Counted from the stretch's first letter, positions 1 to 54,743 are shown. The stretch: DNA of 64,000 nt from Minisyncoccota bacterium (GCA_028714635.1 JAQTLZ010000001.1:15650-79649); one strand, 5' to 3'. Notes: a model not told the origin generated them from the sequence alone. Made by a program: numbers and translations.

Positions 1-1027
1 TTCGATGAAGGAATTTCTTTGTAGTTGGAGAAAGCCGCAATTTTTTTGCAATTTTTCTAAAAAGCGATGATACATTTCTGTACTGTTTGACTCTTAACAC
101 ATAACCCTGGAGGCTATTTCTGCGAATATAAATTTTTTCAGGAAGATTTATATTTATTGGAGGATGCGGTTTTTCAAGCACGTCTTTCAAATTAACTACA
201 AAAATATCGCCTAGATTTCTAAGTTCGTCCATAATATTCCTCGTGAAATTTGAACAGTCAAATGCTGTAATAAAATGAAGGGCTTTAGGATTGAAAACAT
301 AGTAATGCTCTAAGAGTATGTCTCTCCAGTTATAATTTACTCTTCCAGCATCGTATTCTCTTAGATAATATGATCTAGTAAAGTGTATTCTGTGCAAATA
401 TTCAGCATCTGGGCATGTATACGCTACGAGCCCAGCGCAAAGAAATCTCCAAGAAAATCCTTGGGTATCGAAGCCGTGTTTGGTTGGATATCCGCCAATC
501 TTTTGAAAAGCGTTTTTCGTGTACATGAACGTGACGTCGAGCGGGCAGAATTCTTCTTCTGGCCTTATAAGTGATTTGAATGGTATTTTTTTGTCCGGAT
601 AAGGGGATACATCTATGTGATCGATGTTTTTTATGTTGTTTCCTCCAAATTTTATCGAGCGATGTATGCTTACGCCATCACATTTTTTTTCCTTTAAATA
701 TTGGTACATTTTCGAAAGAGATCCCGCTGGTAAAAGATCGTCGCTATCAAGGCAAAATATGACTTCACTTAGGGATTTTGCTACCGCAGTATTTCGAGTT
801 GCGCCACCTCCCTGATTTTTTTCATGAAAAAAATATCGAATATTTTTGTGTTCTAGAGCGAGTTGTTTGATAAGCGCGGGCGTACTATCTGTTGAACCAT
901 CATCAACCATTAGTACTTCAAATTCATCATTTTGAAACCCCTGTGTATAGCAAGAATTTACAGCTTCTGCCAATGTCTTTTCGCAGTTATAGCATGGAAT
1001 TATAAGGCTTAATTTGAGGTTGGGCAT
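1..1027 (-). CDS. Glycosyltransferase family 2 (GT-A fold), 3'-partial; runs off the window start
   Basis: My reverse-strand translation from the ATG at 1025-1027 reads MPNLKLSLIIPCYNCEKTLAEAVNSCYTQGFQNDEFEVLMVDDGSTDST...LDSDD (GT2 DxD/DDGSTDST signatures). The frame stays open to position 1; it is absent from the ORF track, presumably because its stop lies outside the window. Confidence 0.7.
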   Translation of the reverse strand, partial: MPNLKLSLIIPCYNCEKTLAEAVNSCYTQGFQNDEFEVLMVDDGSTDSTPALIKQLALEHKNIRYFFHEKNQGGGATRNTAVAKSLSEVIFCLDSDDLLPAGSLSKMYQYLKEKKCDGVSIHRSIKFGGNNIKNIDHIDVSPYPDKKIPFKSLIRPEEEFCPLDVTFMYTKNAFQKIGGYPTKHGFDTQGFSWRFLCAGLVAYTCPDAEYLHRIHFTRSYYLREYDAGRVNYNWRDILLEHYYVFNPKALHFITAFDCSNFTRNIMDELRNLGDIFVVNLKDVLEKPHPPININLPEKIYIRRNSLQGYVLRVKQYRNVSSLFRKIAKKLRLSPTTKKFLHR

Positions 1028-1053
1028 GACAGTATGAGTTTATCTTAAGGAAT

Positions 1054-2019
1054 CTATTGAAGCAATTTTTTCAACAATTTTGTGATCTTGAGAAATACCA
1101 ATATTTGTACAAAGAAATGCAATATCTTATCTCTCTTTCTCCCGCCCATTTTGCCATAAAATTCTTTTAATAATTCAATTGCCCCAACATTTTCTGTGAT
1201 TTTGTCTCCCATTATTATAAGTTCATTCTTATCAAGATCGACTTCGAAAGGACTTTTGCCGAGCAATCGATTGAGAGCAGTAAAATGGGTTCCATTGAAT
1301 AGCCCATTATTTTTTATAAGAGATCTGGGAGAATTCACCGCCAATCCGTTATTCAATGTTATGGCGATGTACCAACAAATGTCCCAGGGAATAGGATGTG
1401 CTTTTAATGAACCCAGGCATCTAAAAGCACCATCCAGCTCAATTTTGTTTTTTTGTTCTTCAGATAAAAGAGAAAGAGCTTCGTGTTCATTTTGGAACCA
1501 GTGAAATTTATCCCAACGATTTTTCCATGTACCCCATCCGCCACCGGTGTTTTCTGAATAGCGCCAAAGAATAGTTTTTCGATAATCATGGGGCATCCGT
1601 ATAAATGTAAAAGACGCTATGTGCATAATTTTTTCCGTATGTTCGTAAAAATCGAGAGCGTCATTCATGAATGTAAGAAAATTCTTTGCAGACACTCCGT
1701 CATCTTCTAAAACTATAATTTTTCCGTATTTGTTTACTATTTCGGTGACCCCCTCGATTATATTTCTTTCGAGATATATATTTTCTCTTCTTTCTGTGAT
1801 GGTTACAGATTTGAATCCTGTAACTGTCTTTAAATACTTTCGAACTTCTTCCACGTCTTTTTTGCTTCGCTCGGTCTTTGGTCCGTCAGAAAAAAAGAAG
1901 ACATCTGTTTTGCTCGCCAAGTAATTTTTTTGAAGCGCCGCAACTACTTCTTGAGTGTTATCTGGACGGTTATAAACAAAAATAGCGACAGGAGCCAATT
2001 TTCTTTGTGAGGTTTCCAT
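1054..2019 (-). CDS. Putative glycosyltransferase (nucleotide-sugar transferase-like, EDD motif)
   Basis: 321-aa ORF with IIVLEDDGVSAKNF (DxD-like) between two other glycan genes; family not confidently recognised. Confidence 0.4.
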   Translation of the reverse strand: METSQRKLAPVAIFVYNRPDNTQEVVAALQKNYLASKTDVFFFSDGPKTERSKKDVEEVRKYLKTVTGFKSVTITERRENIYLERNIIEGVTEIVNKYGKIIVLEDDGVSAKNFLTFMNDALDFYEHTEKIMHIASFTFIRMPHDYRKTILWRYSENTGGGWGTWKNRWDKFHWFQNEHEALSLLSEEQKNKIELDGAFRCLGSLKAHPIPWDICWYIAITLNNGLAVNSPRSLIKNNGLFNGTHFTALNRLLGKSPFEVDLDKNELIIMGDKITENVGAIELLKEFYGKMGGRKRDKILHFFVQILVFLKITKLLKKLLQ

Positions 2020-2024
2020 AAAGA

Positions 2025-2810
2025 TTATTTATGCAATGCTCGCGGGTGATTACAGGGAGTATGGGGAAGGATAGTTTTTGCGTGAACTATCCGCTTTTCA
2101 GGGGTTGGAGGAGTCATATAATTCTTGTATATGACAGATAAATATTCATGAGGCTTTCCTGGTCCGGGGTAGAGCCTGCTCTCGAATTTTATGTCTTTAA
2201 GTGGGTAGAGATATTCGAGAGGTATAGCATACATATAGCCGTTGTCTTCAGGTGTTTGTCCAATTTTGTCGCCCCTGAAGGGTGAAAAGATGAACCAGAT
2301 TAATTTACAAAAAAGATAGGCCGAATAATTTAAAACAACATTTTTTGATTTTACGAAAGTGTTTTCTCGCGTCCTTAAAGTTGCGTAGGTTAGAACTCTC
2401 CGCAACATTCTCGGCATCCTTGGGTATACCACTGAAGGAAAAATATCTATATAGATGCCATGGTGATACGGTTCCGTACCCGTTTCGTGGTGTTCAAGAA
2501 AGGTAGAATAGCAATCACGGAGTTTGGCAAAGTATTGTTTGTATGCTTTGTCAGTTTGGGGGATTTGAAGAAAAACATCCCGTGGCAACTCTTTTCCTCC
2601 GATTTCTATGAATTTTCGGTAATCTGCTATGGGCATTGAGACATCTATGTCATCATCCCACGGAATAAAACCTCCGTGTCGCACAGCGCCGAGTAAAGTA
2701 CCGAAATCGATCCAATACGTTAATTGGTGTTTTTTGCAAATTGCGTCAAGCGCCCCCAAGAGTTTCAACTGTACTTGACGGCATTCCTCTCTCTCTTGTT
2801 CGTTTATCAT
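2025..2810 (-). CDS. licD: LicD-family phosphotransferase (phosphocholine/phospho-head-group transferase fold)
   Basis: LLGAVRHGGFIPWDDDIDVSMP motif typical of LicD/FKTN nucleotidyltransferase-fold proteins. Confidence 0.7.
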   Translation of the reverse strand: MINEQEREECRQVQLKLLGALDAICKKHQLTYWIDFGTLLGAVRHGGFIPWDDDIDVSMPIADYRKFIEIGGKELPRDVFLQIPQTDKAYKQYFAKLRDCYSTFLEHHETGTEPYHHGIYIDIFPSVVYPRMPRMLRRVLTYATLRTRENTFVKSKNVVLNYSAYLFCKLIWFIFSPFRGDKIGQTPEDNGYMYAIPLEYLYPLKDIKFESRLYPGPGKPHEYLSVIYKNYMTPPTPEKRIVHAKTILPHTPCNHPRALHK

Positions 2811-2834
2811 AATTCGATTTTCACTACGGGATAA

Positions 2835-4175
2835 TTATATTTCTCTTGAAATTCCAACTCTAGAAGCGCTTCTCGACTTATGGGCACCCATGAAGCTTAG
2901 TGCTAATATTGGCGCAGCTGAATAAGAGATAAGTGTTGCCCAAGCTGCTCCTGTTAAACCGAATTTACTGATAAGTAAGAAATTTAGAAGAATATTCAGG
3001 ATCATTGGGAAAAGGTACAAGTAGAAAATTACTTTCAATTGGTTTTCGGATAAGAAATATTGCTGCAGGCCCCATAACGTAAACAACCCGATTCCAGACC
3101 AAACGTAAATTCTTAAGATTGGCACGGCTTCCATATAAGCATTACCGAATAAAAGCTTGATTGCCCATGGCGCAAAAAAAGTTGAAGGAACGGCGATTAT
3201 CACTCCTATAAAAGCTAAAAGCATGTACAATTTTTGCAGACGATCTTTATATATTTTTTCGCTAACTTTTTTTGCGTTTACAATTGCAGGCAAAAGCGAT
3301 GAGCAGATAATTCCAGGAATAAAGTACCATATTTCAACTAATCGTACTGCAGCTGCATAGAAACCCACCGATGTCTCGCCCAAGTACCATTTGATCATTA
3401 TTTGATCGACTTTTAAGAATAAGAAACTGGCACCAGCTGCAAGCATAAGAAAAAGTCCTCCCCATAACATATCTCTTGCTATTTCTCTTTCAAAATTCCA
3501 GTGTCGGAAATTGTATCCATTCTTCCTGTAGATGTAAAAACTCATGGCCGCATTCAGCAAAGATTCAAAAACGAGGATAAATATAAGCCAGGTAACTCCC
3601 TTCCCGTATACAATAAGCATAACTTTTAACACTGACGCTGCCGTGGTTGATATCATGGATACGCTGACGTTTTTTTTCGCCTGAACTGATGATTGGAAAA
3701 AGGTAGAGATAATTACGAATCCTGACCAGATGAAGGTGGAAGAGTATAGAATTATCAGATTTCTAAGGAAAAAAGACGGTTCAAAGATAAAGGCCGATAT
3801 GACGACCGATAAAAAAGCAATAATTCCCCCGCAAAATAAAAGAATGAAGCTGGTTCCCATGAGAGCCTCTCTTTTTTCTGGGTGTTTTACTAAATCACGA
3901 GCTAAAATGGTTCCGATGCCTAAATTTGCGATGAATCCGAAGATCCCAACAAAGGCAAAAACATAGTTTGCAATGCCGTAATTGGTTGGTCCGAGATATC
4001 TTGCCACCCATGCTCCGATGAAAAAGGTCATCAGTAAATAAAACATTTGTCCGAAGAACATCCAGCTGGTATTCATAAAATATTTCTTAAAGCCATCTCC
4101 CCATTGTCCAATGAGGCGTTCATACATCCACTCCGGCATAAGATGTTTTATGATTTTGAGCAAATAGTTAAACAT
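2835..4175 (-). CDS. Polysaccharide biosynthesis protein / Wzx-like oligosaccharide flippase (MOP superfamily)
   Basis: 446-aa highly hydrophobic multi-TM protein in a glycan locus. Confidence 0.6.
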   Translation of the reverse strand: MFNYLLKIIKHLMPEWMYERLIGQWGDGFKKYFMNTSWMFFGQMFYLLMTFFIGAWVARYLGPTNYGIANYVFAFVGIFGFIANLGIGTILARDLVKHPEKREALMGTSFILLFCGGIIAFLSVVISAFIFEPSFFLRNLIILYSSTFIWSGFVIISTFFQSSVQAKKNVSVSMISTTAASVLKVMLIVYGKGVTWLIFILVFESLLNAAMSFYIYRKNGYNFRHWNFEREIARDMLWGGLFLMLAAGASFLFLKVDQIMIKWYLGETSVGFYAAAVRLVEIWYFIPGIICSSLLPAIVNAKKVSEKIYKDRLQKLYMLLAFIGVIIAVPSTFFAPWAIKLLFGNAYMEAVPILRIYVWSGIGLFTLWGLQQYFLSENQLKVIFYLYLFPMILNILLNFLLISKFGLTGAAWATLISYSAAPILALSFMGAHKSRSASRVGISREI

Positions 4176-4194
4176 TTTTTTTGAAGTCCACTTT

Positions 4195-5352
4195 CTAGTA
4201 TATATTTTTTACGATCTCTGCAAGTTCACTGTCCTCGATTTTTCTAGGATTATTTCGTAGGCGCTCCTGGTTCGTTTCTCGTATGATCGTACTCCTTACT
4301 TCTTCAAGATTATATTTTTTTTCAGTAAACCATTTTCTAGGCAAACCAATTTTGTCCATCAATTTTTCCAGGAAAGCAGCTACGTCATCTGCCTCATGGT
4401 GTATTCCAAAAAAAGAATAAAGGTTTTGCATTCTTTGTCGAAAGGAATAAAGCTCGAGACGAGTATCGATATTTTGTGAAGTTATTTTACCGTTCATTCT
4501 AAACATTGTTGGTAAAGTGAGGCTAACAGCATGGCCATGCGGTAGGCCATAGTGGGCGGTCATGGCATATGAAAACGCATGAGGTGCTGTAGTTCTCGCG
4601 ATGTTTATTGCTTTGCCTGACAAGTGTGCAGCATTTAACATCTCTTTTCTCTCTGTTTTGTTTGGATTCACAACAGCTTTCTCTAGATGCTTTAAACAGG
4701 TCCGTATGCATTCTTCGCTGTATCGCAGGGATTCATTAGTCGCGTTAACTGCCCAGTATGATTCAATTCCTTGAGCAAAGGCATCCATTCCAGCACACGC
4801 TGTCAGGTAAGGAGATTGTGATTCTGTGAATTTTGCATTTAAAAGTACATGCGAGGGTAAGACTGAACTATGATCAACTGATTTTTTGATCATTCCATCG
4901 TACAGTACAGCAAATTGGGTAGTCTCACTTCCAGTGCCGGCCGTTGTTGGTACAGCCATAAGAGGCATGCAGGATTGGGCCGGGATTTTCTCCTCCGGGC
5001 TATATTTCTTGGGAGCAATTTTATGGGATACGAAAAAATTGATTGATTTTGCGATATCGATAGCGCTTCCTCCGCCCACACCTATGATAAGACTGTGGGG
5101 CAGACTTCTGAACACTTCTATTCCTCTTTCTACATCCTCCATCTTTGGATTAGAGGAGAAATCATGAAAAAAAGTCATAGGAATATTGGGTATCGTTTCG
5201 AAAAATGCTTTTGCTCCAGACAATTTAAAAGAAGACTCTCCAGCAACGACAAATACTGATGAATTTTTTTCTCGTCCATCTAAGAATTTTTCAACGAACT
5301 CTAAAGACCCCTTTTCTCCGGAGTGAACATTTTGGATTTTTGTATCATTCAT
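4195..5352 (-). CDS. Iron-containing alcohol dehydrogenase family; putative phosphonoacetaldehyde reductase
   Basis: GVGGGSAIDIAKS Fe-ADH signature; adjacent to ppd/pepM, which suggests phosphonoacetaldehyde reduction. Confidence 0.6.
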   Translation of the reverse strand: MNDTKIQNVHSGEKGSLEFVEKFLDGREKNSSVFVVAGESSFKLSGAKAFFETIPNIPMTFFHDFSSNPKMEDVERGIEVFRSLPHSLIIGVGGGSAIDIAKSINFFVSHKIAPKKYSPEEKIPAQSCMPLMAVPTTAGTGSETTQFAVLYDGMIKKSVDHSSVLPSHVLLNAKFTESQSPYLTACAGMDAFAQGIESYWAVNATNESLRYSEECIRTCLKHLEKAVVNPNKTERKEMLNAAHLSGKAINIARTTAPHAFSYAMTAHYGLPHGHAVSLTLPTMFRMNGKITSQNIDTRLELYSFRQRMQNLYSFFGIHHEADDVAAFLEKLMDKIGLPRKWFTEKKYNLEEVRSTIIRETNQERLRNNPRKIEDSELAEIVKNIY

Positions 5353-6469
5353 TTTTTCCGTTCAGGAAGCTCATAAGCATATCCTTATTTTCTACGGGGG
5401 TAGAAGTTGGTCGACCCAAATCATTGCGTACTTCTAAAGAAACTTTGATCTCGAGAAGATTTTTTCCTTTTGTTTTTAAAAGTACTGGCATGATTTTTTT
5501 GACTTCTCTCCTTGTGTGAACTGATTTCACAAATGTGTAACCGCAAGCTTTTGCTATTTTGGGGAAATCTATTTTAAAACCAACAGTCGGTTGTCCTCCA
5601 ACTGAACCATGGGCTCCATTGTTTAATATAATATGCTTAAAATTTTTTAAAGAGGATTGGCCAATGATTGCTAATGATCCAAGATGCATAAGCGCTGCGC
5701 CGTCTCCATCCAAACAGACTACTGTACGTTTCGGATGGCGCATCGCAATTCCCATTGCAATCTGTGAAGCGTGTCCCATCGAACCTACAGTCAGAAAATC
5801 TTTTCGGTGGTCATCTTTGCGAAGCTCAAAGAGTTCGCGAGAGATATGCCCAGTGGAAGAGATGACTGCTGCATGATGAGGAAGTGATGACACTATCTCT
5901 CGAATCGCATCTTCTCTTGAGAGAAGAAAAGAAGATTTTTTTGTCGAGACAGCATATTTCTCAAACGTATCTTTTTTTGCGATGAGTGCAACGGGGCAGC
6001 TATGTTTAATTGCATAAGTAATTATCTCTGAAATCACTTTTCGAGCGTCTAGTTCGTTTTCAGGTATTATTTTCCAGGCTATTCCCATTGCATCTAGTAA
6101 AGGCAAAGTTACTTTGCCTTGTTTGATATGCTGGGGCTCATCTTGTACTCCCGGTTCTCCTCGCCAACCAATGAGAAGAATCATGGGGATTCCATACACT
6201 TCTGGATCGGCAAGTGAAAGAAGGGGATTGACTGCGTTTCCTTGTCCAGCATTCTGCATATATACAAGAGCGGGTTTGCCTGTGGCGAGATAGTGTCCTG
6301 TGGCTAACCCAACAGCGCCACCTTCGTTTGCCGCAATAACATGTTTTTCACTTGGTACATTGACGGAAAGGAAGGCACAAAAATCTTTTAGGAGTGAATC
6401 AGGAATACCCGTAAAGAATGAAATCCCTTGCTGGTCAAGCCAATTATAGAATTTTTTAGAGCCGATCAT
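5345..6469 (-). CDS. ppd: Phosphonopyruvate decarboxylase (TPP-dependent)
   Basis: N-terminal LDQQGISFFTGIPDSLLKDF and the GDGAALMHLGS TPP-binding motif. Confidence 0.75.
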   Translation of the reverse strand: MIGSKKFYNWLDQQGISFFTGIPDSLLKDFCAFLSVNVPSEKHVIAANEGGAVGLATGHYLATGKPALVYMQNAGQGNAVNPLLSLADPEVYGIPMILLIGWRGEPGVQDEPQHIKQGKVTLPLLDAMGIAWKIIPENELDARKVISEIITYAIKHSCPVALIAKKDTFEKYAVSTKKSSFLLSREDAIREIVSSLPHHAAVISSTGHISRELFELRKDDHRKDFLTVGSMGHASQIAMGIAMRHPKRTVVCLDGDGAALMHLGSLAIIGQSSLKNFKHIILNNGAHGSVGGQPTVGFKIDFPKIAKACGYTFVKSVHTRREVKKIMPVLLKTKGKNLLEIKVSLEVRNDLGRPTSTPVENKDMLMSFLNGKNE

Positions 6470-6481
6470 AATTCTGTGGAT

Positions 6482-7774
6482 TTATATTAAATCGATTATT
6501 TCTTTAATGGAGACGCATAATTTATCGGCCTCCTTCGCCCTTCCGTTCATAAGTATTGTCTCTGCTGTTTTCAGCATTGCTGGGTATGAGCTTCTCAGTA
6601 GCTGATTCGCGTATATGACGATCTGCACACCATGTTTATGCAGTTCGGTTTCCGTTACTTGTGAATAGGTACTTGGTGCGACAACTAAAGGCACATGACG
6701 GGAGAGAGGAAGTTTTGCATAAGCTTTACAAAAAGCGAATATTTCATCGGGTGTTTTTTCTTTACTATGAATCATGATGGCGTCAGCGCCAGCTTTTATG
6801 TAAGAGGTGACTCGTTTTAACGCATCTTCGAGGCCAGCTCCTATGATCAAGCTTTCGCATCGCGCAATTATCATAAAATCTTCCGTTACTTGTGCATGTT
6901 TTCCCGCTTTAATTTTCTCGCTCATTTTTTCTATTGTTTCTTGCGGTTGGATGTTTCCTTGATCTAGCAGAGAATTCTGTTTCAATCCCGTTTTATCTTC
7001 TATAATGATGGCAGATACTCCTAGCCGTTCCAATGTCCGAGCAGTAAATACGAATTGTTCTGGATGCCCGCCGCTGTCTCCGTCGTAGATTATTGGTTTT
7101 GTGGTTACCTCTAAAATATCGTTGACCGTATGCAATCTGGAAGTCAGATCCACGCATTCAATATCTGGTTTGCCTTTTGATGTCGAATCTGTGAGACTGC
7201 TAAGCCACATTGCATCAAACTCTTTGTCCTTGCCTTTTTGAGATACTTTGCAATTTTCAACGATTAAACCTCCTAATCCGCTGTGCACCTCCATAACGCT
7301 GATAATGTTTTTGGCATTTAGTAATCTGCGCAGTCTCAATCTGCGAATATCTGGCGTGGTGCCGATCTCTTTTATAGCATTATGAAGCTGGCTTGAAGAA
7401 ATGCCCGAAGTATATTTTGGTTCTATCAATTTACCACCCCACGCTTTTAGTGCATTAATGACTCCTTGTCGAGTCTCTTTTTGTACTCCTTCCCGCCAGT
7501 CATCTCCGTGTACAACATAATCAGGTCTGATTTTTTTCAGATTGGGAACATAGTCTAATGTATCCTGCGGGATTACTTTGGATACGTTTTTCAATCCCTT
7601 CACTATTTCACTCCGCTGTTCGTAAGTCATGTAAGGCAAGCGTTTATAACTAGCGATAGCTTTGTCAGTTAAGATCCCAACTATAACTTCTCCGTATTGG
7701 GATGCAGTGTTTATGATATTCAAATGGCCCGGATGAATTATGTCTGCACTCATTGCTACGTAGACCTTTTTCAT
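6482..7774 (-). CDS. pepM: Cytidylyltransferase - phosphoenolpyruvate phosphomutase fusion protein
   Basis: N-terminal HxGH nucleotidyltransferase domain ([13 protein letters not shown]); C-terminal ICL/PEP-mutase-family domain (IIIEDK..., [10 protein letters not shown]). Confidence 0.75.
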
Positions 7775-7814
7775 GATTTTTTAAGAATTACTAGATAATT
7801 CGTAATAAATATTC

Positions 7815-8069
7815 TTACCACTCGCTCATTTTATCAGTGACTTTCTTTTTAAGCGAAAGGTAGGAGCGGACAGCTTTCTCTTCGGCTTCGGGAGATATGA
7901 GCCGTATGATTTCCTTTCCGAGTATTCGATATTGCCCACCCACTTTATTAGCACGAATAAGACCCTTTTTGAGAAGCCTTTTCATGGTGCTTGTGCTTAC
8001 ACGGAGAACTTTCTCTGTTTCCGCAGTAGTATAGACGCCATGAGGCTTGATCTCTTCCATACTTGCCAT
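7815..8069 (-). CDS. HTH DNA-binding protein (excisionase/MerR-type HTH_17)
   Basis: 84 aa with VYTTAETEKVLRVSTSTMKRLLKKGLI. Confidence 0.45.
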   Translation of the reverse strand: MASMEEIKPHGVYTTAETEKVLRVSTSTMKRLLKKGLIRANKVGGQYRILGKEIIRLISPEAEEKAVRSYLSLKKKVTDKMSEW

Positions 8070-8100
8070 TATAGCAAGGTGTCAGAAGGTGTCAAAAGGT

Positions 8101-9030
8101 TCACTTGGTATTTTCTTTGTACCAGAGATAAGTTTTCTTGATTCCATCCTCAAGCGAGACACTATGTTTCCAACCAAGAGTGTGAAGACGAGTTACGTCG
8201 AGAAGTTTTCGAGGAGTGCCATCGGGAATTCCGGCATTCCATTTTATTTCTCCCTCAAATTTGATTTCTTCCTTAATAAGATTAGCCAGAGATTCTATAG
8301 TGAGGTCTTCTCCCGTGCCTATGTTTAGATGATCTTTTCCGTCGTAGGTGTTCATAAGAAATATGCATGCAGAGGCAAGATCATCTACGAAGAGGAATTC
8401 TCGACGGGGTTTTCCCGTTCCCCAAAGCGTCACTGATTCTGCGCCAGCTTTTTTCGCATCATCAAATTTTTTGATGAGGGCGGGGATGACGTGAGCGGTT
8501 TCCGGGTTGAAATTGTCATTCGGGCCGTAGAGATTTGTCGGCATTGCAGAGATGAAATTTGTTCCGTATTGCCGATTGTATGATTGACACATTATGATTC
8601 CTGCAATTTTCGCGATCGCGTATGCCTCGTTCGTCTCTTCAAGTTTTCCCGTCAAGAGACTTTCTTCTCGTATCGGTTGGGGAGCGAGTTTCGGATAGAT
8701 GCATGAACTGCCGAGGAAAAGGAGCTTTTTCACTTTGACTCGGTAGCTTTCGTGGATGACATTGCTTTCAATAAGAAGATTCTCGCGGATAAAATCGGCG
8801 GGATAGGTTTGGTTTGCCATTATCCCTCCCACTTTTGCCGCTGCTAAAAATACGTACTCTGGTTTTTCTTTCTCGAAAAAATCGGAAACCGCTCGCGGAT
8901 CGATAAGATCGAGTTCTTTGTGTGTTTTTAAAATGAGATTCTTGTAGCCTTCCGCTTCCAGAGCGCGAGTTATTGCGCTTCCGACAAGACCGGTATGTCC
9001 TGCTACAAATATTTTTGATTCTTTGTCCAT
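8101..9030 (-). CDS. fcl: GDP-L-fucose synthase
   Basis: SDR fold with [10 protein letters not shown] and the SSCIYPK motif; highly similar across its length to Fcl/WcaG. Confidence 0.85.
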
Positions 9031-9034
9031 CTTT

Positions 9035-10069
9035 TTATTTTTCTTCCGCGAGTTTGAGATCAGCTTCAGCCATAATTTTTACGAGTTCCTTAAATCCCAC
9101 TTTTGGCTTCCATCCGAATGTTTTGAATGCTTTGGTCGCATCCCCGAGGAGCACATCCACTTCTGCGGGACGAAAATATCTCGGATCGATTTCGATAATA
9201 GTTTTTCCTGTTTTTTTATCCATCCCTTTTTCTTCGAGTCCCTTTCCTTTCCACTCGATTTCAAAGCCGAGGAGCTTTGCCGATTCTTCGACAAACTCTC
9301 GTACAGTATGTGTTTCGCCTGTAGCCAAGAGATAATCATCAGGCTTTTCTTCTTGAAGCATTTGCCACATTCCATAGACGAAGTCCTTTGCGTAGCCCCA
9401 GTCTCTTTTGGCATCCAAATTTCCGAGAAAAAGTTTTTCATCTTTTCCGACCTTAATTCTCGAAAGCCCTCGGGTGATTTTTCTGGTAACAAATGTTTCT
9501 CCTCGGCGAGGGGATTCGTGGTTGAACAAAATTCCGTTACAAGCGAAAAGGCCGTAACTTTCTCGATAGTTTTTGGTGATCCAGTAGGCGTAAAGTTTTG
9601 CGCACCCATAGGGAGATCGGGGATAGAAGGGGCTGGTTTCCTTGAGCGGGAGTTCAATTGCTTTCCCGAACATTTCGCTTGACGAAGCTTGGTAAAATTT
9701 TGTTTTAATTCCGGTGTCTCTGATTGCGTCGAGAATGCGAAGTGTTCCCAATCCGTCTGTATCTGCCGTATATTCTGGAATATCGAAACTCACGCGGACA
9801 TGGCTTTGCGCTCCGAGATTATAAATTTCATCTGGCTTCACTTCTTCCAGGATTCTGTTTAGATTACTTCCATCTCCGAGATCTCCGTAGTGAAGAAACA
9901 ATTTTACTCCTCGTATGTGAGGATCCTGGTACAAGTGTTCAATTCTCTCTGTATTAAAGGTGCTTGCGCGTCTTATGATGCCATGGACCTCGTATCCTTT
10001 TTCGAGAAGCAGTTCTGCCAAGTATGAGCCATCCTGGCCTGTAATTCCCGTAATGAGAGCGCGTTTCAT
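9035..10069 (-). CDS. gmd: GDP-mannose 4,6-dehydratase
   Basis: [30 protein letters not shown]...; start taken at the internal Met (ATG complement at 10067-10069) rather than the ORF-track start. Confidence 0.85.
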
Positions 10070-10156
10070 CGTCGTTTCATCGTATCCCGCTCTTTTTTTG
10101 ATGTCAATCAATCTCTTCGGTTTTTTGAAGTTGAAGCGTGTGGTATAGTACCTCTC

Positions 10157-12289
10157 ATGGAAACAAATAAAATTCTCCACCGAAGCATTCTGGTCGGCAT
10201 TTTTGCTCTTCTCCTCATTCCCTTTTTGGTTTTCAATTCGATGTTTTTCCCATTTATTACTGGAAAGAATTTTGTGTTCCGCATTATCGTAGAAATCATT
10301 TTTGGCCTTTGGCTCATTCTCATCTTTCGTGACAGACGTTTCCTGCCCAAGCGCTCAGCACTTTTTTATGCCTTTCTGGCTTTCATTGTTGCTATTACTC
10401 TCGCAGATTTTCTTGGAGTTAATCCATATAGGAGTTTTTGGAGCAACTTTGAGCGTATGGAAGGTTTGATCACTCACCTCCATCTTTTCGCGCTCTTTCT
10501 TGTTGGAAGCTCCGTGCTTAACACTAAGAAACTATGGACGCGTTTTTTCAATTCCGCGCTTGTAGTCAGTATGGCAATGGCGTTGTACGGGTTTCTTCAG
10601 CTTTTCGGCGCTCTTGAAATTCATCAAAGCAGTTCTCGTGTAGACGGACCGATTGGAAACTCTGCCTATATGGCGATTTATATGATCTTCCATGTCTTTC
10701 TTGCTCTTTTCCTTCTTTTGCGTTCGAGAGAAAGGCGGATGCAGATTATATATGCCGGGGTGGCGCTTCTTAATACTGTCATTGTTTATTACACAGCAAC
10801 TCGTGGTTCCATCATTGGTCTTATTGGAGGATTTTTCCTCATCGCTATCCTTGTTGGCATTTTTGAGAGAGAACGCAAAACCTTGAGAAAAATATCCATA
10901 ATAGCCAGCGTCGGCGTAGTTGCCATCGTCCTGCTTTTCTTTGCGGCAAAAAACACAAGTTTTGTGAAGAATAGCTCCGTTTTGAATCGTTTCGCGACCA
11001 TTTCTTTAACAGAGCAGACCACCGAATCGCGATTTCTCATTTGGAAGATGGCGTATCAAGGCTTCAAAGAACACCCAATCTTCGGTTGGGGACAGGAGAA
11101 TTTTATCCTCGTCTTTCAGAAATATTATGACGCGAAAATGTGGAATCAGGAGCCTTGGTTTGACCGCACCCATAACGTAGTCCTCGACTGGCTTATTGCG
11201 GGAGGTGCTTTAGCATTTCTCGCTTACCTTTCTCTTTTCGTAGTGTCTCTTTTCTGTATTTGGAAGAAAAGAGGTTTATTTTCTGCGACCGATAAGGCCG
11301 TGTTCACGGGGTTGCTTGCTGCATATTTCTGCCACAACCTTTTCGTGTTCGATAATCTCACAAGCTACCTTCTTTTTATCTTCGTACTTTCTTATTTTCA
11401 TTTTGTATCTATAGAAAATGGAATAGCTGATGCTTCAGAAAAAGAGTTTCCCAAGAAAATTTCAAACGAGCCATCTCAAAGTGTCCAATCTATTCTTATC
11501 CCCGTAGTTATCATCGTTTTACCGATTGCAATTTATTTTCTCAATATTCCCCAAATACTTTCCAACACTTCTCTTATAAATGCGCTACAATGGCAACGAG
11601 TTGATCCTGCAAAGAGTCTCGATTATTTTAAACAATCGCTCTCTTATGACACTTTGGGGAAGCCGGAAATACGTACTCAACTGGTTCAAAGCGCTTCCAG
11701 TGTTGCTGCTTCTTCAGCCTCGGATGAATTAAAAAAGAACTATATTGTATTTGCCAAAGATGAGATGGAGAAACAAATAGAAGAGGAACCGCTTGATGCT
11801 CGGTATCCATTTTTTCTAGGGCAATTTCTTACTCGGTTTAGCGCTATTGACGAGGCAAGGAAAAATATTGAAAAGGCTCTTGCACTTTCACCGAAGAGGC
11901 AGGATATGTTGTCTGCGATCGCAATCACATACTTCGATACTGATCTTAAAGATAAAGGGTTAGAAACTATGAAACAGGCATTCGATATAGAGCCGGAAAA
12001 TGATTCTATCCGGACTCTCTATGCAGTATTCGCGGTTTTTGCTCAAAGGGATGATTTGGTGAAAGAACTCCTATTGCCGAGATATCATACGTATCTCGTT
12101 CCTGATAACAAACTTGTCGGCGCCTATGTACGAACCGGCCAGCTGAAGAAATATATCGACCTCAATACTGTTTTTCTTCAGCAAGAATTAAAGACGGGGC
12201 TTTTGAGTCAGGCGGAAAAAGACGCGATTAGTGCGCTCAATGCGGAATTCGAAAAAAAGCTCGATGTGTACAAAAAGGCGAATCAATAG
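10157..12289 (+). CDS. O-antigen ligase-like (Wzy_C) polytopic membrane protein with C-terminal TPR repeats
   Basis: Multi-TM N-terminal region containing [12 protein letters not shown] (Wzy_C-like); C-terminal ~250 aa TPR-like. Confidence 0.65.
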
Positions 12290-26470: not shown

Positions 26471-26609
26471 TCCTTTTTTCCTCCTAGTGAACTGGGTTTA
26501 ATTGCACCGGGTCCAATTATATGACATATATTGTGCTATTGTCAAGCACTGTATTTGTTTTCTCAAGTCTCTCTGTTTTTAGGACATATTTTCTGCTATA
26601 GTTTCTCTT

Positions 26610-31198: not shown

Positions 31199-34100
31199 AT
31201 GAAAACAATCCACGAGAAACTTCAGAACGGAAGCCAAGCCTACGCCGACTGGCACAACAAGCCGGCGCATCCGTATGTTCATGGAGCGATCTATGTAGCC
31301 GTCCTCTTTTTTGCTATTCAAGCGGTAGCTATCGACACGAATTCTCTTATTGACAGTTATTTTAGCTCAACATCTTTTGTTACAATTGCCGTCCGCTCGC
31401 TTGCCACTAATGTCAAAGCCCTGACAGACAAAGCGGTCTTCCTGGCTGAAGCGTTGCGTTCGTATCCGGAAAATCAAAGACCGGCGCTTTCCGCCGAACT
31501 TGAACAGACTCTCGCGAATCGCTTTGCCGCGCTCTCACGTCTTGCCGACAGCAACTCGCAGAGTTTCCTTTCCTCGATCTTTACGGCGGAACAGAGAGCG
31601 CTCATGCCCGCATCGGTTGCTTCCGCAATAGAGACGCCTGTCAATCCGAATGATACCTATACCTATCTGGTGAAGCATTCTGATGAAGGTCTTTGTGAAT
31701 CTCCGGCGCACTCCGACAATCCCAAAGCTCCTCCGCCTGCCGAAAAGCACTGCGATGCCCGCGGCATTTTCCAAGACCGCTTGAAAGGCAAAGACGGCAA
31801 CATTTTTGAAGCTCATTTTGGGGGCAAGAAACCGCGCCTCGGCGAACAAATCAAAATCAAGAAAGGCCAGAGAGTGGGCCAGCAGATTGTTGTATCGGCA
31901 GATGCCGATGCTACTGAAGTGGTTGCTCCGATAAAGGCGCAGTTGGGCGCAGGTGGCGCAGGCGCAGGCGGGTCAACCTCAAGCATGCCGACGACGGGTG
32001 TTAAAACCGTGCTCTACATGCTCGTCGGTTTTCCCGATGTCGTTGATACCACAGGATCAATTACGGGTACGGTAGGTGGAATACTTGCTCCGGGATTGCC
32101 GGGATCGTCTGGATCGTCACAGGTTAGCGAAGCTCAGGCTATGACTGACGCTCAATCAGAAATGGGAAAGGTGAATCAATTCCTGTCGGATAATTCCCAC
32201 GGTTTGACTTCATTTTCAACGGTCGTCACTCCGCTTCTTGTTTTGCCCAACACCTCAACTTATTATGCGAGCCATACATCCTTCCCATACGGTGATGACC
32301 TGATCCAGGCCGATGCCCGCGCTGCCGCCCTCGCCAAAGGGTATAACTATCTGGATTACACTCTTGATGCCGTCCGTTACAACGGCAGTTACGGCAATTT
32401 CGGCGGCGAAGCATACATTGGCAGCCGAGGCGTGTGGCTCAAGTCATCCCGCTTTACCGTGGCGGCTCATGAATTCGGCCACAACTATGGTCTTTTCCAC
32501 GCCAACACATGGGTTACTACTGATGGGACGACGCTTGGAGCTGGCGCGAATCAAGAGTATGGTGACTTATTCGACAGCATGAGCAGCAGTTCGTTGGGAG
32601 GATATTTCAACGCATTTGAAAAATATTGGTTGCAATGGCTTCCTCCTGCAAACACTACGTCAGTCACCACAAGTGGCACGTATGCTGTCAGTTCCTTCGA
32701 CCAGCCCGCTTTCAGTGCTGGACTCAAATATGCTCTCAAAATTACCAAAGATACCGATCGCGATTATTGGATCGGTTTTCGGCAGGGTTTCCCGGCAAAT
32801 ATCTGGGAGACGAATGGCGCTGAAGTGCTTTGGGATCCTTGGACAAATAGCAACGGCGGCAGCCAGCTTTTGGACACGAACCCTGGCGGTACGAATGGCT
32901 GGAATGACGCCGCACTTGTTGTTGGTCGCACTCTTGCGGATACCAGCGCAGGAATATATATAACACCGATACGTAAAAATCCGGCAAATGGGACAGTCCC
33001 CTCATCAATAGATGTGGTGGTAAATCTCGGCGCATTTTCCGGAAATGTCGCCCCAACCCTTTCTGTGGCGCCAAGCGCGACTTCCATTCCGATGTATCAG
33101 CCTGTTACTTTTACCCTGAACGCAAATGACGGGAACGGGGATGCTTTGGCATACTACTGCGATTTCGGAGACAAAACATTCAGCAACATGAGCGCTGGTG
33201 TTCTTTCTAAGGTATACGTTGCGCCCGGCACATTCACGGTTATGTGTGAAGTTTCCGACATGAAAGGCGGAAAAGCGACAGCGGCAACGAGTCTTACGGT
33301 AACGGCTGCTGCCCCTCTCAACAATATGTTCGCCAATGCTTTTGTTCTCACAGGCTCAGCAGCGAATGCGACCGGCGCGAATAATTACGCTACGAAGGAA
33401 TCCGGCGAACCGACTATCGCCAGCACGATCGGCGGCAAGTCGGTCTGGTGGACGTGGACCGCGCCCGCTTCAGGAGCGACCACCATCGCTCTCGCGGGAA
33501 GCAATTTTGATACGCTCCTCGGCGTCTATACCGGTACGGCAGTCAACGCTCTCACCCTCGTCGCTTCAAATGATGATAATGGAACTTCGCCTCGAAGCAG
33601 GGTTGTCTTTAATGCTACGGCGGGAACGACATACCACATTGCAGTAGATGGATATGGCGGGTCATGGGGAAACATTGCTCTTTCTGTGTCCGGGCCTTCC
33701 GCCACTGTCAATACAGCGCCGACTGTCGCCACTTCCGCCAGCGTTTCCCCAAGTCCTGTGACGGGAACCACCGCTACACTTTCTGCTCTTGGCACTGATG
33801 ATGGGGGAGAATCCGCACTCACCTATACTTGGGCTGTTACGGGCACACCTCCTGGTCCTGTCGTCTTTAGTACAAATGCAACCAATGCCGCAAAGATAAC
33901 CACTGCTACTTTCGACAAAGCCGGTACTTACAACCTCCAAGTTACTGTCAAAGATGCTGGTAATCTATCAGTCACAAGTTCTGTTACGGCAACAGTCAAT
34001 CAAACACTCTCCACTCTTTCTGTCACACCAGCTACGGCAACGGTTTTGACTTCCGGAACGCAACAATTTAGCGCGGTTGCAAAAGACCAGTTTGGAAATC

Positions 34101-35632
34101 TGCTCACCGTGGCGCCCGCCCTCACCTGGGCGGTTTCGGGCGGCGGATCGATCAATTCCGCCGGCCTCTTCACTGCTGGTTCCACCGCGGGCGGGTCGTT
34201 CACGGTCACGGCCACCAGTGGCGCGGTGTCGGGCACAGCCACAGTTACGGTAGGCGCCGTGCCAATTCTCACGACAATTTCCGTGTTCCCAAGCTCCACG
34301 CTGGTCGCGACTAACGGAACCAAGCAGTTTACCGCAACGGCCAAGGATCAGTTTGGTGTTGCGCTTTCACTTCAGCCAACATTCACTTGGAGCGTTACTG
34401 GCGGAGGTACTATTTCTTCCACCGGCCTTTTCACTGCGGGGTCCACTTCAGGCGGGCCTTACACTGTGGCGGCGTCAAGTGGTGGTGTCAGTGGCACGAC
34501 TACTCTCTCGGTCATCGTCATTCCGGTGCTAACGACAATTACCGTTTCTCCTTCCAATCCAACTGTTCAGCCGGGAGGAACCCAACAATTCACCGCGACT
34601 GGAAAAGATCAGAATGGCAGCACTCTCACGTCCCAACCGACATTCACCTGGAGCGTCTCGGGTGGTGGCACGATGAGCGCAAGTGGTCTCTTTACCGCAA
34701 GCGCCACCGCGAAGGGTTCGTACACGGTTACTGCGACAAGCGGCAGCGTTTCTGGAACTGCTTCCGTCAGTGTTCCTGCCGTCCTAAAATCCATCACTCT
34801 TTCTCCTTCCAGCGCTTCAGTGCAGACAAACGGAACACAGCAATTTACAGCCCAAGGTGTTGATCAGACCGGCGCATCCATGACCTTCGCCCCGGTTTGG
34901 ACGGTAAATGGGGGAGGCACGCTCTCTTCGAGCGGCCTCTTCACTGCCGGAGGCACAGCGGGTGGTCCATACACGGTGACCGTCACCAACAATCCTGTTA
35001 CCGCAACCGCCAGCGCTTCTGTCACAATCACCGCGCCAGCTCCTGTTCTCACATCGATCACTCTTTCTCCGATCTCCGCTTCGCTTGTTTCCGGAGCGAC
35101 ACAAACATTTACCGCTACCGCAAAAGATCAAAATGGAACTGCGATGTCTCCACAACCAAGTTTCACTTGGACAGCAACTGGCCAATCATCACTTGCACCG
35201 AGCGGTTCTACAGCGACCTACACAGCGGGCAACACGGCAGGCGCTTCCTTTGGAATAACAGCTTCTTCGGGAGGGAAAAGCGCCACCGCTCCTATTAGTA
35301 TCACGGTGCCTGTGACACCGTCTCCCCCGCCACCAACAGGGGGAGATGTCACTCCGCCTACGGTCAGCTTGAAACCTCCGCCTTCTAATGGTGACATCAT
35401 ACAGAGAAGTACAAGGACTCTTTGGGCCAACGCCTCTGACAATGCAAAAATTGCCAAAGTGGAATTCTACGCCAACACCACTTTGCTTTGCACTGTCAAA
35501 CGCTCCGCCAATTTTTACTGCAATTGGGATCCGACCGGTAGCAGCGTCACCTACAATCTCACGGCAAAAGCCTACGACACGTCGAATAATTCCGCCGTCT
35601 CTCCTGTGGTCACAGTGACGACAGTTCCCTAA
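31199..35632 (+). CDS. Giant secreted/membrane-anchored zinc metalloprotease (HExxH) with PKD, pre-peptidase C-terminal (PPC) and ~12 Big_2 Ig-like repeats
   Basis: N-terminal TM helix; AAHEFGHNYGLFH zincin motif; PKD-like YYCDFGDKTF; PPC-like domain (TTYHIAVDGYGGSWGNIALSVSG); repeated ~85-aa Big_2 units (GLFTAGSTAGGSFTVTATSG...TATVTV). Confidence 0.7.
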   Translation: MKTIHEKLQNGSQAYADWHNKPAHPYVHGAIYVAVLFFAIQAVAIDTNSLIDSYFSSTSFVTIAVRSLATNVKALTDKAVFLAEALRSYPENQRPALSAELEQTLANRFAALSRLADSNSQSFLSSIFTAEQRALMPASVASAIETPVNPNDTYTYLVKHSDEGLCESPAHSDNPKAPPPAEKHCDARGIFQDRLKGKDGNIFEAHFGGKKPRLGEQIKIKKGQRVGQQIVVSADADATEVVAPIKAQLGAGGAGAGGSTSSMPTTGVKTVLYMLVGFPDVVDTTGSITGTVGGILAPGLPGSSGSSQVSEAQAMTDAQSEMGKVNQFLSDNSHGLTSFSTVVTPLLVLPNTSTYYASHTSFPYGDDLIQADARAAALAKGYNYLDYTLDAVRYNGSYGNFGGEAYIGSRGVWLKSSRFTVAAHEFGHNYGLFHANTWVTTDGTTLGAGANQEYGDLFDSMSSSSLGGYFNAFEKYWLQWLPPANTTSVTTSGTYAVSSFDQPAFSAGLKYALKITKDTDRDYWIGFRQGFPANIWETNGAEVLWDPWTNSNGGSQLLDTNPGGTNGWNDAALVVGRTLADTSAGIYITPIRKNPANGTVPSSIDVVVNLGAFSGNVAPTLSVAPSATSIPMYQPVTFTLNANDGNGDALAYYCDFGDKTFSNMSAGVLSKVYVAPGTFTVMCEVSDMKGGKATAATSLTVTAAAPLNNMFANAFVLTGSAANATGANNYATKESGEPTIASTIGGKSVWWTWTAPASGATTIALAGSNFDTLLGVYTGTAVNALTLVASNDDNGTSPRSRVVFNATAGTTYHIAVDGYGGSWGNIALSVSGPSATVNTAPTVATSASVSPSPVTGTTATLSALGTDDGGESALTYTWAVTGTPPGPVVFSTNATNAAKITTATFDKAGTYNLQVTVKDAGNLSVTSSVTATVNQTLSTLSVTPATATVLTSGTQQFSAVAKDQFGNLLTVAPALTWAVSGGGSINSAGLFTAGSTAGGSFTVTATSGAVSGTATVTVGAVPILTTISVFPSSTLVATNGTKQFTATAKDQFGVALSLQPTFTWSVTGGGTISSTGLFTAGSTSGGPYTVAASSGGVSGTTTLSVIVIPVLTTITVSPSNPTVQPGGTQQFTATGKDQNGSTLTSQPTFTWSVSGGGTMSASGLFTASATAKGSYTVTATSGSVSGTASVSVPAVLKSITLSPSSASVQTNGTQQFTAQGVDQTGASMTFAPVWTVNGGGTLSSSGLFTAGGTAGGPYTVTVTNNPVTATASASVTITAPAPVLTSITLSPISASLVSGATQTFTATAKDQNGTAMSPQPSFTWTATGQSSLAPSGSTATYTAGNTAGASFGITASSGGKSATAPISITVPVTPSPPPPTGGDVTPPTVSLKPPPSNGDIIQRSTRTLWANASDNAKIAKVEFYANTTLLCTVKRSANFYCNWDPTGSSVTYNLTAKAYDTSNNSAVSPVVTVTTVP

Positions 35633-35908: not shown

Positions 35909-36418
35909 ATGCCGGAAGAAGTTCTCGGCGGGATGTGGGAAAGCATCAAGACAGAGTGGGAATCGGCCCGGCCACAGGTGACGGGGCATTGCACGCTCAT
36001 TGAAGATTTCCAAGCTTCGCCCACTCACTTTTACGGCCTCGTCGAAAAGGCAATTGAGCGCCGCAAGATTCCGGGTCTGCGCATGTCGCATGTCCTGCAT
36101 CGGGAAGGCTGGATCATGTCCGCGGCGCGCGAGTACCTGCGCGCCGAGCGCGGCAAGATTTCGTTTGAAATCTGCGGCGCGCCCTTCGGGACCGGGTTTT
36201 TCGTGTCGTGCCGCATGATCGTCATGCCGGAAAAGAATGGCATCTTCGCCCGGATTTGGAAGTTCCTGTTCAATCCCAACACCTTCTACCAAATGGACGT
36301 TGCCGCCATGTACCAATCGGCAATCGAATCAGCGGTGAAGGAAGCGAAGAACGAATTGACGCAGACGAAACTCTCCGTGCCGGGCCTGCGCACCAGCGCT
36401 GTTCCGGTGCTTGCGTGA
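35909..36418 (+). CDS. Hypothetical protein (170 aa), first gene of a three-gene operon
   Basis: Strong GGAGGAGGGG SD; no recognised family; ends 5 nt before the ATPase start. Confidence 0.4.
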   Translation: MPEEVLGGMWESIKTEWESARPQVTGHCTLIEDFQASPTHFYGLVEKAIERRKIPGLRMSHVLHREGWIMSAAREYLRAERGKISFEICGAPFGTGFFVSCRMIVMPEKNGIFARIWKFLFNPNTFYQMDVAAMYQSAIESAVKEAKNELTQTKLSVPGLRTSAVPVLA

Positions 36419-36423
36419 CGGCC

Positions 36424-39400: not shown

Positions 39401-39444
39401 CCGTCAGGAATGCCACCAAGCGTCTTCGCGACGGAAGAAAATAG
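36424..39444 (+). CDS. Large P-loop NTPase of the TraD/VirD4/HerA-FtsK (AAA_10/TraG-D_C-like) class, with a ~430-aa non-membrane N-terminal region and a C-terminal nuclease-like domain
   Basis: Walker A HVVGASGTGKST, VLDPHGD, Walker B LYLDEFQNF, and a LILSHQDMHQL motif; no TM helices. The C-terminal ~150 aa (VDVEIETGSESIACEIS) are acidic and possibly PD-(D/E)xK-like. Confidence 0.55.
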   Translation: MSANEYALARPQAHGSTADLVASEFSRWLALGQGTREWDFPVFIEPPYSPIIVAPAVIEDDGRQPTILSALADTVGNWLSPKKRPAPKANTVVAGDLNWLAFPNCSTPVEFQALIPPHISIRKDSFEQFLMSVRYCHFPLCFELIGRADSITVQLVAQQDDVAHVEPQLAAHFPDIVFAKRTGHLEKVWQETEGEHRFLFGFSLLQPFLLPLESYRGFPVDPLVGLAGALSDIRKDEAAVFQVLFEPARNPWLETLAQVAEFAPELSPHIRKKIAYPFFAVVARLACKAASEERLVQLLKNLDGAMRVFSTPAGNGLTVLSNKGYSSGRQEIDLLLRQTHRSGMLLNSDELLGLAHWPTPAVRTPKLDRATRKTRPAPTLCLNHALTLGTNNHNGEDSTVTLAPAQRVKHMHVVGASGTGKSTFLLNLIIQDIENGEGVGVLDPHGDLVDEILAHIPAERHDDVVLVDPSDEEYPVGFNILSAHSNLEKNLLASDLVSVFRRLSTSWGDQMTSVLGNAVLSFLESSTGGTLSDLRRFLIEPGFRAEFLETVRDEEVVYFWKKEFPLLSGKPQASLLTRLDSFLRPKPIRHMVCQKENKLDFASIMDSKKIFLAKLSQGLIGQENSYLLGSLFVSKFHQLVMGRQEVRQSERENFWLYLDEFQNFVTPSMAAILSGARKYRLGLILSHQDMHQLVSRDPDVANAVLANAFTRVCFRLGDSDARRMTEGFSNFDAHDLQSLGTGDAICRIERSAFDFNMYTALPELVDEELAEERRRRIREFSRAKHSKRRTELEPPRGQTPAAPAFPKAEDTTPTPAAPRPEPAPLQIAKSTPGKGGHEHKVFQQVLCDWAGDLGFTAAIEQELPSGQGSVDVEIETGSESIACEISVTTSIADELSNLTKCLTAGYDHLLMICTDRGKLDALKRSAAAKFPADALERVQFVTPTEAFQFLHSLIDGVSITAKGALSSYGCDVRVNYPPAASAPSSKKGGVAQAVRNATKRLRDGRK

Positions 39445-39455
39445 GTGGTTGCCGC

Positions 39456-40706: not shown

Positions 40707-41120
40707 TTGCGCTTGGCGCCGGACTTCCAGCGAGTGTTTTCCATCAATAGGTATGGGGCGAACATGATTGCTTCGTTGCTCATGCCGCTTTGGAACGCCT
40801 CTGAGGGTCAATCCTCCATGCCGCACTCGCAGTCTCAGCAAATTCCAGCCACAGAAATACAAGAAATCGGCACAGAATCTTTCACAGATTTTACTGGACA
40901 GGATGACGCGGCTCGAGGTAATGTCCCTGTGTCCGCAGGACCGACAAGGCCGCTCGCGTTGAACAGGATTACGGACGAATTGCTCGACGATACGCTGCGG
41001 GTCTGGTCGGGAGCCTACGGCCAAACAATGACCGAAGACGATGGCGTGGAAATCCTGCTCAACGTCAAGCGTCTGGCCGAAGTGCTTATGAAGTCAGGAC
41101 AAAAAGGAGATATGCGATGA
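40707..41120 (+). CDS. Hypothetical protein, 4-bp overlap with the serine recombinase gene
   Basis: TTG start; no recognised family; alternative start at MIASLL. Confidence 0.3.
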   Translation: MRLAPDFQRVFSINRYGANMIASLLMPLWNASEGQSSMPHSQSQQIPATEIQEIGTESFTDFTGQDDAARGNVPVSAGPTRPLALNRITDELLDDTLRVWSGAYGQTMTEDDGVEILLNVKRLAEVLMKSGQKGDMR

Positions 41121-52452: not shown

Positions 52453-52467
52453 TAGAAAAGAACTGAG

Positions 52468-53852: not shown

Positions 53853-53876
53853 GACTGTTCTCCTTTCTGTTGTGGG

Positions 53877-54671: not shown

Positions 54672-54743
54672 ATGAACTGAACTGAAAAAAGGGTAACATT
54701 GAAATCGTTTTTAATGTCAATGTTGGCACGCAATGCACAACAA

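Follow-up and report, generated by a model that had tools for sequence, protein, structure and literature searches.

The 64,000-nt stretch of DNA analyzed here (the window) comes from a Candidatus Paceibacterota bacterium of the candidate phyla radiation (CPR). It carries a surface-glycan operon that, in our assessment, quite probably includes a complete three-gene cassette for making 2-hydroxyethylphosphonate (HEP) activated with cytidine monophosphate (CMP). The cassette encodes a fusion of a cytidylyltransferase (CyTase) with phosphoenolpyruvate (PEP) mutase (PepM, also written Ppm), a phosphonopyruvate decarboxylase (Ppd), and an iron-type alcohol dehydrogenase (Fe-ADH). Gene identities were taken from the listing of open reading frames (ORFs) together with Pfam and NCBIfam scans, and these reproduced exactly the genes and coordinates of the five minus-strand ORFs at 2025-7774 given in a preliminary description of this DNA, which had read them as a route that makes a CMP-phosphonate and puts it onto a glycan. 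Our analysis supports that reading, refines the head group to HEP, and treats transfer by the LicD-family protein as a predicted step. The identities of PepM, Ppd, and the Fom1-type CyTase are established at the level of sequence; the Fe-ADH step and the later steps assigned to LicD, Wzx, and Wzy_C proteins we infer from family membership and gene context.

Catalytic domains of the phosphonate cassette

6482-7774, minus strand: CyTase-PEP mutase fusion (PF01467, CTP_transf_like, 4.1e-16; PF13714, PEP_mutase, 3.5e-55; TIGR02320)
5345-6469, minus strand: phosphonopyruvate decarboxylase, Ppd (TIGR03297, 482.1 bits against a cut-off of 312.5)
4195-5352, minus strand: group III iron-type alcohol dehydrogenase, Fe-ADH (PF00465, 2.4e-34; PF25137, ADH_Fe_C, 7.4e-28)

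The C-terminal PEP mutase domain of the fusion (residues ~145-430) scores 377.9 bits with TIGR02320, above the equivalog cut-off of 319.55, whereas the next-best NCBIfam family, phosphonopyruvate hydrolase, reaches 149 bits against a cut-off of 374. Residues 259-268 form the EDKXXXXXNS motif that is diagnostic of Ppm (PMC6697681), and which the preliminary description had singled out as a check on the assignment. The N-terminal PF01467 domain (residues ~1-137) carries an HPGH nucleotide-binding motif, and both the EDKxxxxxNS and HxGH motifs are kept in 76 of 76 related fusion proteins. The best Protein Data Bank match of residues 4-137 is the CyTase domain of Streptomyces Fom1 (5x3d, 190.6 bits, E 4.4e-55), with 61% identity to the crystallized domain over 134 ungapped residues, whereas other cytidylyltransferases in that database score far lower (ECT, for ethanolamine phosphate, 54 bits; TagD, 1coz, for glycerol-3-phosphate, 35 bits; CCT, for choline phosphate, 26 bits). 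The domain therefore groups with the Fom1 HEP CyTase and not with glycerol-3-phosphate cytidylyltransferases, the outcome that would have spoken against the earlier description. Fom1 CyTase converts HEP and cytidine triphosphate (CTP) to CMP-HEP (Cho et al. 2017, as summarized in PMC6697681), and we predict the same reaction, yielding CMP-HEP and pyrophosphate, for the N-terminal domain of the present fusion.

Ppd contains both thiamine pyrophosphate-binding domains (PF02776, TPP_enzyme_N, and PF02775, TPP_enzyme_C), and its gene overlaps that of the Fe-ADH by 8 nt. To place these genes in context, we compared the 80 nearest loci in species-representative genomes from many phyla, out of at least 580 such genomes with the fusion. 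In 75 of these loci the fusion is followed by Ppd, and the Fe-ADH is present in 69, nearly always in the same order. This synteny, together with the existence of Ppd-ADH fusions and the name phosphonoacetaldehyde reductase that NCBI gives to an identical protein, leads us to predict that the Fe-ADH is a PhpC/FomC/DhpG-like reductase that converts phosphonoacetaldehyde to HEP. Its metal-ligand positions are D190, Q194, H258, and H272, among which D190, H258, and H272 are conserved. Loss of activity owing to Q194 was considered and rejected: glutamine is the majority residue at this position across 67 aligned sequences, comprising this protein and 66 syntenic homologues (39 with Q and 28 with H), and it also occurs at the equivalent position of the active enzyme 6jko.

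The preliminary description had left the head group as either 2-aminoethylphosphonate (AEP) or HEP. We retain only the second, and predict HEP over AEP because the Fe-ADH lies directly after Ppd and is coupled to it, and because no Aminotran_5/PhnW-type aminotransferase was found among the window ORFs scanned, a set from which several shorter ORFs were left out. In the proposed pathway, the PepM domain would convert PEP to phosphonopyruvate, and Ppd would convert this to phosphonoacetaldehyde in a decarboxylation that drives the unfavorable mutase equilibrium forward. The Fe-ADH would then reduce phosphonoacetaldehyde to HEP, which the N-terminal Fom1-type domain would join to CTP to give CMP-HEP.

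The glycan operon and the predicted fate of CMP-HEP

2-1027, minus strand: GT2 glycosyltransferase (PF00535, 7.5e-34; ATG at 1027, open at the window edge)
1054-2019, minus strand: 321-aa GT-A-like putative glycosyltransferase (PF00535, 20.9 bits, below the 23.3 cut-off)
2025-2810, minus strand: LicD-family transferase (PF04991, 4e-40, 138.7 bits)
2835-4175, minus strand: Wzx/MOP flippase, Polysacc_synt (PF01943, 7.7e-27; PF13440, 2.2e-23)
7815-8069, minus strand: small HTH_17/excisionase-family DNA-binding protein (PF12728, 6.1e-10)
8068-8095, minus strand: sigma-70 consensus promoter (12/12 match, extended -10)
8101-9030, minus strand: GDP-L-fucose synthase, Fcl (PF01370, 5.7e-65; NF047922, 484 bits, just below the 500 cut-off)
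9035-10069, minus strand: GDP-mannose 4,6-dehydratase, Gmd (TIGR01472, 579.9 bits against a cut-off of 415)
10157-12289, plus strand: membrane protein of 710 aa, Wzy_C domain plus TPR repeats at the C-terminus (PF04932, 2.9e-22; TPR matches)

The cassette lies within a minus-strand array spanning 2-10180, beside which the Wzy_C gene is encoded divergently. Gaps between consecutive genes range from -8 nt (an overlap) to 40 nt, and the arrangement is operon-like on account of this spacing. The upper bound of the array is that of the mechanical ORF for gmd, which reaches 10180, while the NCBI gene call is of 344 aa (9035-10069). At the other end, the GT2 gene is the last one seen and its 3' end runs off the window start, beyond which the operon continues. 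The 321-aa product of the gene before it had no match in the NCBIfam scan and is only tentatively a glycosyltransferase. The flanks of gmd/fcl and an O-antigen-ligase-like gene that had been described earlier are borne out by the TIGR01472, NF047922, and PF04932 matches.

The LicD-family protein exceeds the PF04991 gathering threshold of 22.6 bits, although it matches only profile positions 1-108 of 227. Its WDDDIDV segment, which holds a DxD motif, aligns with WDYDVDL in the catalytic region of FKRP (6kaj), an enzyme that uses CDP-ribitol. The fused CyTase is the only cytidylyltransferase among the scanned ORFs, and LicD is in the same operon. This context, and the recurrence of LicD beside the cassette in 17 of the 80 loci by iterated hidden Markov model search (6 of 80 by plain blastp with the window LicD), suggest that LicD moves hydroxyethylphosphonyl from CMP-HEP to a glycan hydroxyl. 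With 17 of 80 loci, LicD is a frequent rather than a fixed partner, and we rejected it as a part of the conserved cassette. One of the 17 is L012, from another Paceibacterota genome, where LicD sits between Ppd and the Fe-ADH.

The companions of the cassette, namely LicD, Wzx, two glycosyltransferases, gmd/fcl, and Wzy_C, point to decoration of a lipid-linked, fucose-containing unit. The locus bears a Wzx/Wzy signature, with a MOP-family flippase (PF01943, PF13440) and a Wzy_C-domain protein (PF04932), and the pairing of LicD with Wzx parallels that of LicD1/LicD2 with TacF. In the steps after activation, LicD would transfer hydroxyethylphosphonyl from CMP-HEP onto a sugar hydroxyl, with release of CMP. 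The acceptor would be an oligosaccharide, linked to a lipid and containing fucose, that the neighboring glycosyltransferases assemble and for which Gmd and Fcl supply GDP-fucose. Decoration of the repeat unit would take place at the cytoplasmic face, before flipping; the decorated unit would then be exported by the Wzx flippase, and the Wzy_C-TPR protein would polymerize it or ligate it to its final acceptor. We regard the Wzy_C-TPR protein as a putative polymerase, ligase, or protein O-oligosaccharyltransferase. A homologue of 459 aa with 36% identity, for which no TPR match was reported, lies 3.8 kb from the cassette in L012. An initiating phosphoglycosyltransferase of the WbaP/WecA type was not found among the scanned ORFs and, since the operon continues beyond the window start, may lie outside the window.

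Several observations weigh against this reconstruction. The Fe-ADH falls below every NCBIfam equivalog cut-off (ErcA, 147 against 550 bits), including that of the phosphonate-specific model TIGR03405 (Phn_Fe-ADH), with which it scores 139.9 bits against a cut-off of 423.7; with no curated equivalog cut-off reached, the assignment of its substrate depends on synteny. Only about one-fifth of the related loci pair the cassette with LicD, and because the literature searched holds no direct biochemical demonstration of phosphonyl transfer by a LicD-family enzyme, its transfer step is one that we infer. The acceptor glycan and the role of the Wzy_C-TPR protein are putative, and expression and product are predictions for an organism represented by a metagenome-assembled genome (MAG) from an uncultured lineage.

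The closest published scheme is the phosphonyl tailoring (Pnt) model of Rice et al. (2019; PMC6697681). It combines PepM, Ppd, and AEPT with a PntC cytidylyltransferase and a LicD-like transferase, and takes the pneumococcal Lic pathway for phosphocholine as its analogue. Both systems follow a common logic in which a phosphonate is made, activated with CMP, and transferred by a LicD-family protein to a surface glycan ahead of flipping. They differ in that the Pnt model makes AEP through an aminotransferase and activates it with a biochemically characterized PntC of the PF12804 type, whereas the present cassette is predicted to make HEP through an Fe-ADH and to activate it with a PF01467-type domain. 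Fusions of PF01467 with Ppm make up 23.6% of the RefSeq Ppm proteins (PMC6697681), and HEP-type loci comprise 8.5% of pepM neighborhoods, with examples in Campylobacter jejuni, Helicobacter cinaedi, and Stackebrandtia nassauensis (Li & Horsman 2022, PMC8942020). The Ppm-Ppd-PhpC-like Fe-ADH core that predicts HEP is common to those neighborhoods and the present one. From an exopolysaccharide, a conjugate of HEP has been isolated (PMC8942020). The present case differs in its host, an uncultured Paceibacterota, and in that its product is a predicted one.

A different destination for CMP-HEP, which we consider unlikely, is a phosphonolipid or lipid-anchored polymer, with LicD and Wzx acting on a glycolipid or a teichoic-acid-like molecule. 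Such end points have some precedent, as the cassette is paired with CDP-alcohol phosphatidyltransferases in 9 related loci, including the CPR locus L014, and with TagF-like glycerophosphotransferases in 7. The window LicD also matches the NCBIfam model for diacylglycerol cholinephosphotransferase (Mf1), albeit at 67.7 bits, far under the cut-off of 225. However, the scanned ORFs include neither a CDP-alcohol phosphatidyltransferase (CDP-OH_P_transf) nor a TagF-like gene, and the presence of Wzx, two glycosyltransferases, gmd, fcl, and the adjoining Wzy_C gene is the signature of a Wzx/Wzy-type glycan.

Less probable still is a role for CMP-HEP as a transient in the synthesis of a small-molecule phosphonate, such as a fosfomycin-like compound, or as a precursor of methylphosphonate, in which case LicD would decorate the glycan from an unrelated CDP-alcohol (phosphocholine, or ribitol or glycerol phosphate). 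Fom1 itself works in this way (PMC6697681), and the Fom1/Fom2/FomC system of Streptomyces shares with our cassette a CyTase-PepM fusion of the same domain order, Ppd, an Fe-ADH phosphonoacetaldehyde reductase, and CMP-HEP as the common predicted intermediate. Among related loci, genes for B12-radical SAM enzymes and for methyltransferases come after the nearest fusion homologues (77-79% identity), and a B12-radical SAM gene is a neighbor in 5 of the 80. Among the scanned ORFs of the window, by contrast, there was no radical SAM gene, no counterpart of the fosfomycin enzymes Fom3 (a B12-radical SAM methyltransferase), Fom4/HppE (an epoxidase), or FomD (a hydrolase), and no HEPD- or MpnS-like gene, and for this reason we rejected a fosfomycin-like or methylphosphonate pathway. 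Nor was there any licA/licB/licC, TarI/TarJ, or other cytidylyltransferase in that set that could feed LicD, the sole one seen being the PepM-fused enzyme of the same operon. In a glycan operon with LicD and Wzx, CMP-HEP is instead predicted to serve as a transfer donor rather than as the transient handle that it is in fosfomycin synthesis.

The weakest alternative, to which we give very little credence, is that the head group is AEP made by a transaminase encoded elsewhere, with the Fe-ADH in another role: AEP is by far the commonest product of pepM neighborhoods (56% versus 8.5% for HEP; PMC8942020) and had been kept as an option in the preliminary description, but we rejected it in view of the lack of an aminotransferase among the scanned ORFs and the translational coupling of the Fe-ADH to Ppd and their fusion in close relatives. 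The CyTase domain, too, belongs to the HEP-specific Fom1 type (PF01467) rather than to the PntC type (PF12804) shown to use AEP.

Distribution and possible origin of the cassette

The fusion family is large, with at least 8000 protein clusters (90% identity, E <= 1e-50), and JGI names its members 'phosphoenolpyruvate phosphomutase / 2-hydroxyethylphosphonate cytidylyltransferase'. Glycan genes predominate among the neighbors of the cassette in related loci (GT2, GT4, NDP-sugar dehydratases, DegT, FdtA, NeuB, and Wzx), and other partners include CDP-alcohol phosphatidyltransferases, TagF-like proteins, sulfatase-family proteins, and B12-radical SAM enzymes. Given these varied partners, the three-gene cassette behaves as a portable module that serves different end points. 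In the closest metagenomic relatives of the fusion (77-79% identity), Ppd and the Fe-ADH form one protein of ~761 aa (L082, 5700-7988; L083, 11308-13593; L084, 7353-9638). The genes after this fused protein encode a member of the sulfatase family and a B12-radical SAM enzyme, suggestive of other downstream chemistry on the CMP-HEP cassette, and in L083 and L084 the fused protein lies within a glycan locus of the ABC-transporter (Wzm/Wzt) type.

Four other CPR genomes (L012, L014, L030, and L069) and three DPANN archaea (L019, L046, and L063) are among the 80 nearest. The preliminary description had called phosphonoglycan decoration unusual for a genome of this kind; this was overstated, considering these seven genomes, the size of the fusion family, and the NCBI annotations, which already name PEP mutase, phosphonoacetaldehyde reductase, and a LicD family protein. 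Proteins identical to the window fusion, Fe-ADH, LicD, Obg, and GatB are found in NCBI in Candidatus Paceibacterota MAGs, including JAQTSW010000018.1. Pathways of this type are well known and occur widely; what is mildly unusual is only the CPR host. Nothing in the logic is new, as fusion, cassette, and a model of LicD-type transfer have all been published, and the NCBI annotation is correct. In the literature searched, which consisted mostly of titles and abstract openings, we found no link between Patescibacteria and pepM or phosphonate pathways.

The window fusion shares 69-74% identity with those of Desulfatiglandales, Syntrophales, Verrucomicrobiota, and Kiritimatiellales, versus 63-66% with those of the four other CPR genomes. 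Because it is thus closer to the fusions of those lineages than to those of the other CPR bacteria, the cassette was likely acquired horizontally, as judged from pairwise identities rather than from a tree. The fusions of the other CPR and the DPANN genomes are 64-90% identical among themselves, a likeness that may reflect transfer of the cassette between episymbiont lineages. GC content is 36-44% in the genes of the operon and 42-46% in the housekeeping genes measured, so that the former equal the latter or fall slightly below them.

It is conceivable, although we lean against it, that an ultra-small, host-dependent Paceibacterota took the HEP-CMP cassette from anaerobic free-living bacteria and that, on a surface glycan or glycoprotein that contains fucose, it lays down a coat of phosphonate esters resistant to hydrolysis. 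Such a coat might shield the surface of the epibiont from host phosphatases and glycosidases or mediate attachment and, if the trait proved general, phosphonoglycans would recur at the surfaces of episymbiotic prokaryotes, and HEP in the environment would have a source that has been overlooked. For CPR bacteria, with their minimal capacity for biosynthesis, the spending of PEP and CTP on a surface phosphonate implies a benefit, which may lie in contact with the host or in resistance to degradation. With a length of ~6 kb and its own probable promoter, the module also offers a compact test case for the use of a CMP-phosphonate donor by LicD.

Promoter region and the rest of the window

Immediately past the stop codon of fcl lies a minus-strand sigma-70 site (8095-8068; TTGACA-16 nt-TGc-TATAAT) that matches the consensus at 12 of 12 positions, has an extended -10 element, and precedes by 7 nt the start codon (ATG, 8060) of the small helix-turn-helix (HTH) gene. 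Perfect sites of this kind occur twice in the 64 kb, where 0.01 would be expected, with the second at 26516-26545 (minus strand). Since a perfect consensus lies directly upstream of the HTH gene, the phosphonate module from this gene to the GT2 gene is probably transcribed from a strong promoter of its own, and the transcript of its first gene would be leaderless or nearly so. The promoter also holds a tandem repeat of TGACACCTT, a 9-mer whose only two copies in the window are these, 10 bp apart, and the pair is a candidate operator.

The HTH gene, the first of the module, is situated between fcl and the CyTase-PepM gene. It likely starts at ATG 8060, giving 81 aa as in the NCBI call, and shows weak matches to MamR and excisionase models. 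It was not found beside the cassette in the other 80 loci, and its product could be a local regulator or the relic of an insertion event.

In describing the source as a small low-GC genome, the preliminary description was right about the size, as befits a Candidatus Paceibacterota MAG, but not about the composition, which is not uniformly low: the window backbone is 37-47% GC, and at 28000-56300 the value rises from ~40-47% to 52-63%. Neither Rfam nor tRNA scans of the window gave a hit, which leaves no rRNA or tRNA as a taxonomic marker; the taxon was read from the names that NCBI gives to identical proteins. Within the high-GC block lie genes for a PKD/Big-domain surface protein of 1477 aa (31199-35632), a TrwB/TraG-like type IV coupling protein (36208-39444), two serine recombinases (39330-40622 and 41117-42712), a 1597-aa ORF without a Pfam match (43119-47912), and a PATR-repeat protein (47970-51362). 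These are followed on the minus strand (51493-55706) by an ArdC-like protein, a DnaG-type primase, and a Replic_Relax protein. The block looks like an integrated conjugative or mobilizable element of foreign composition in a Paceibacterota contig, or else an assembly chimera. Beyond it, beside a gene for ribulose-phosphate 3-epimerase, transketolase is split on the plus strand into an N-terminal thiamine pyrophosphate-binding half (60628-61497) and a pyrimidine-binding/C-terminal half (61897-62892).

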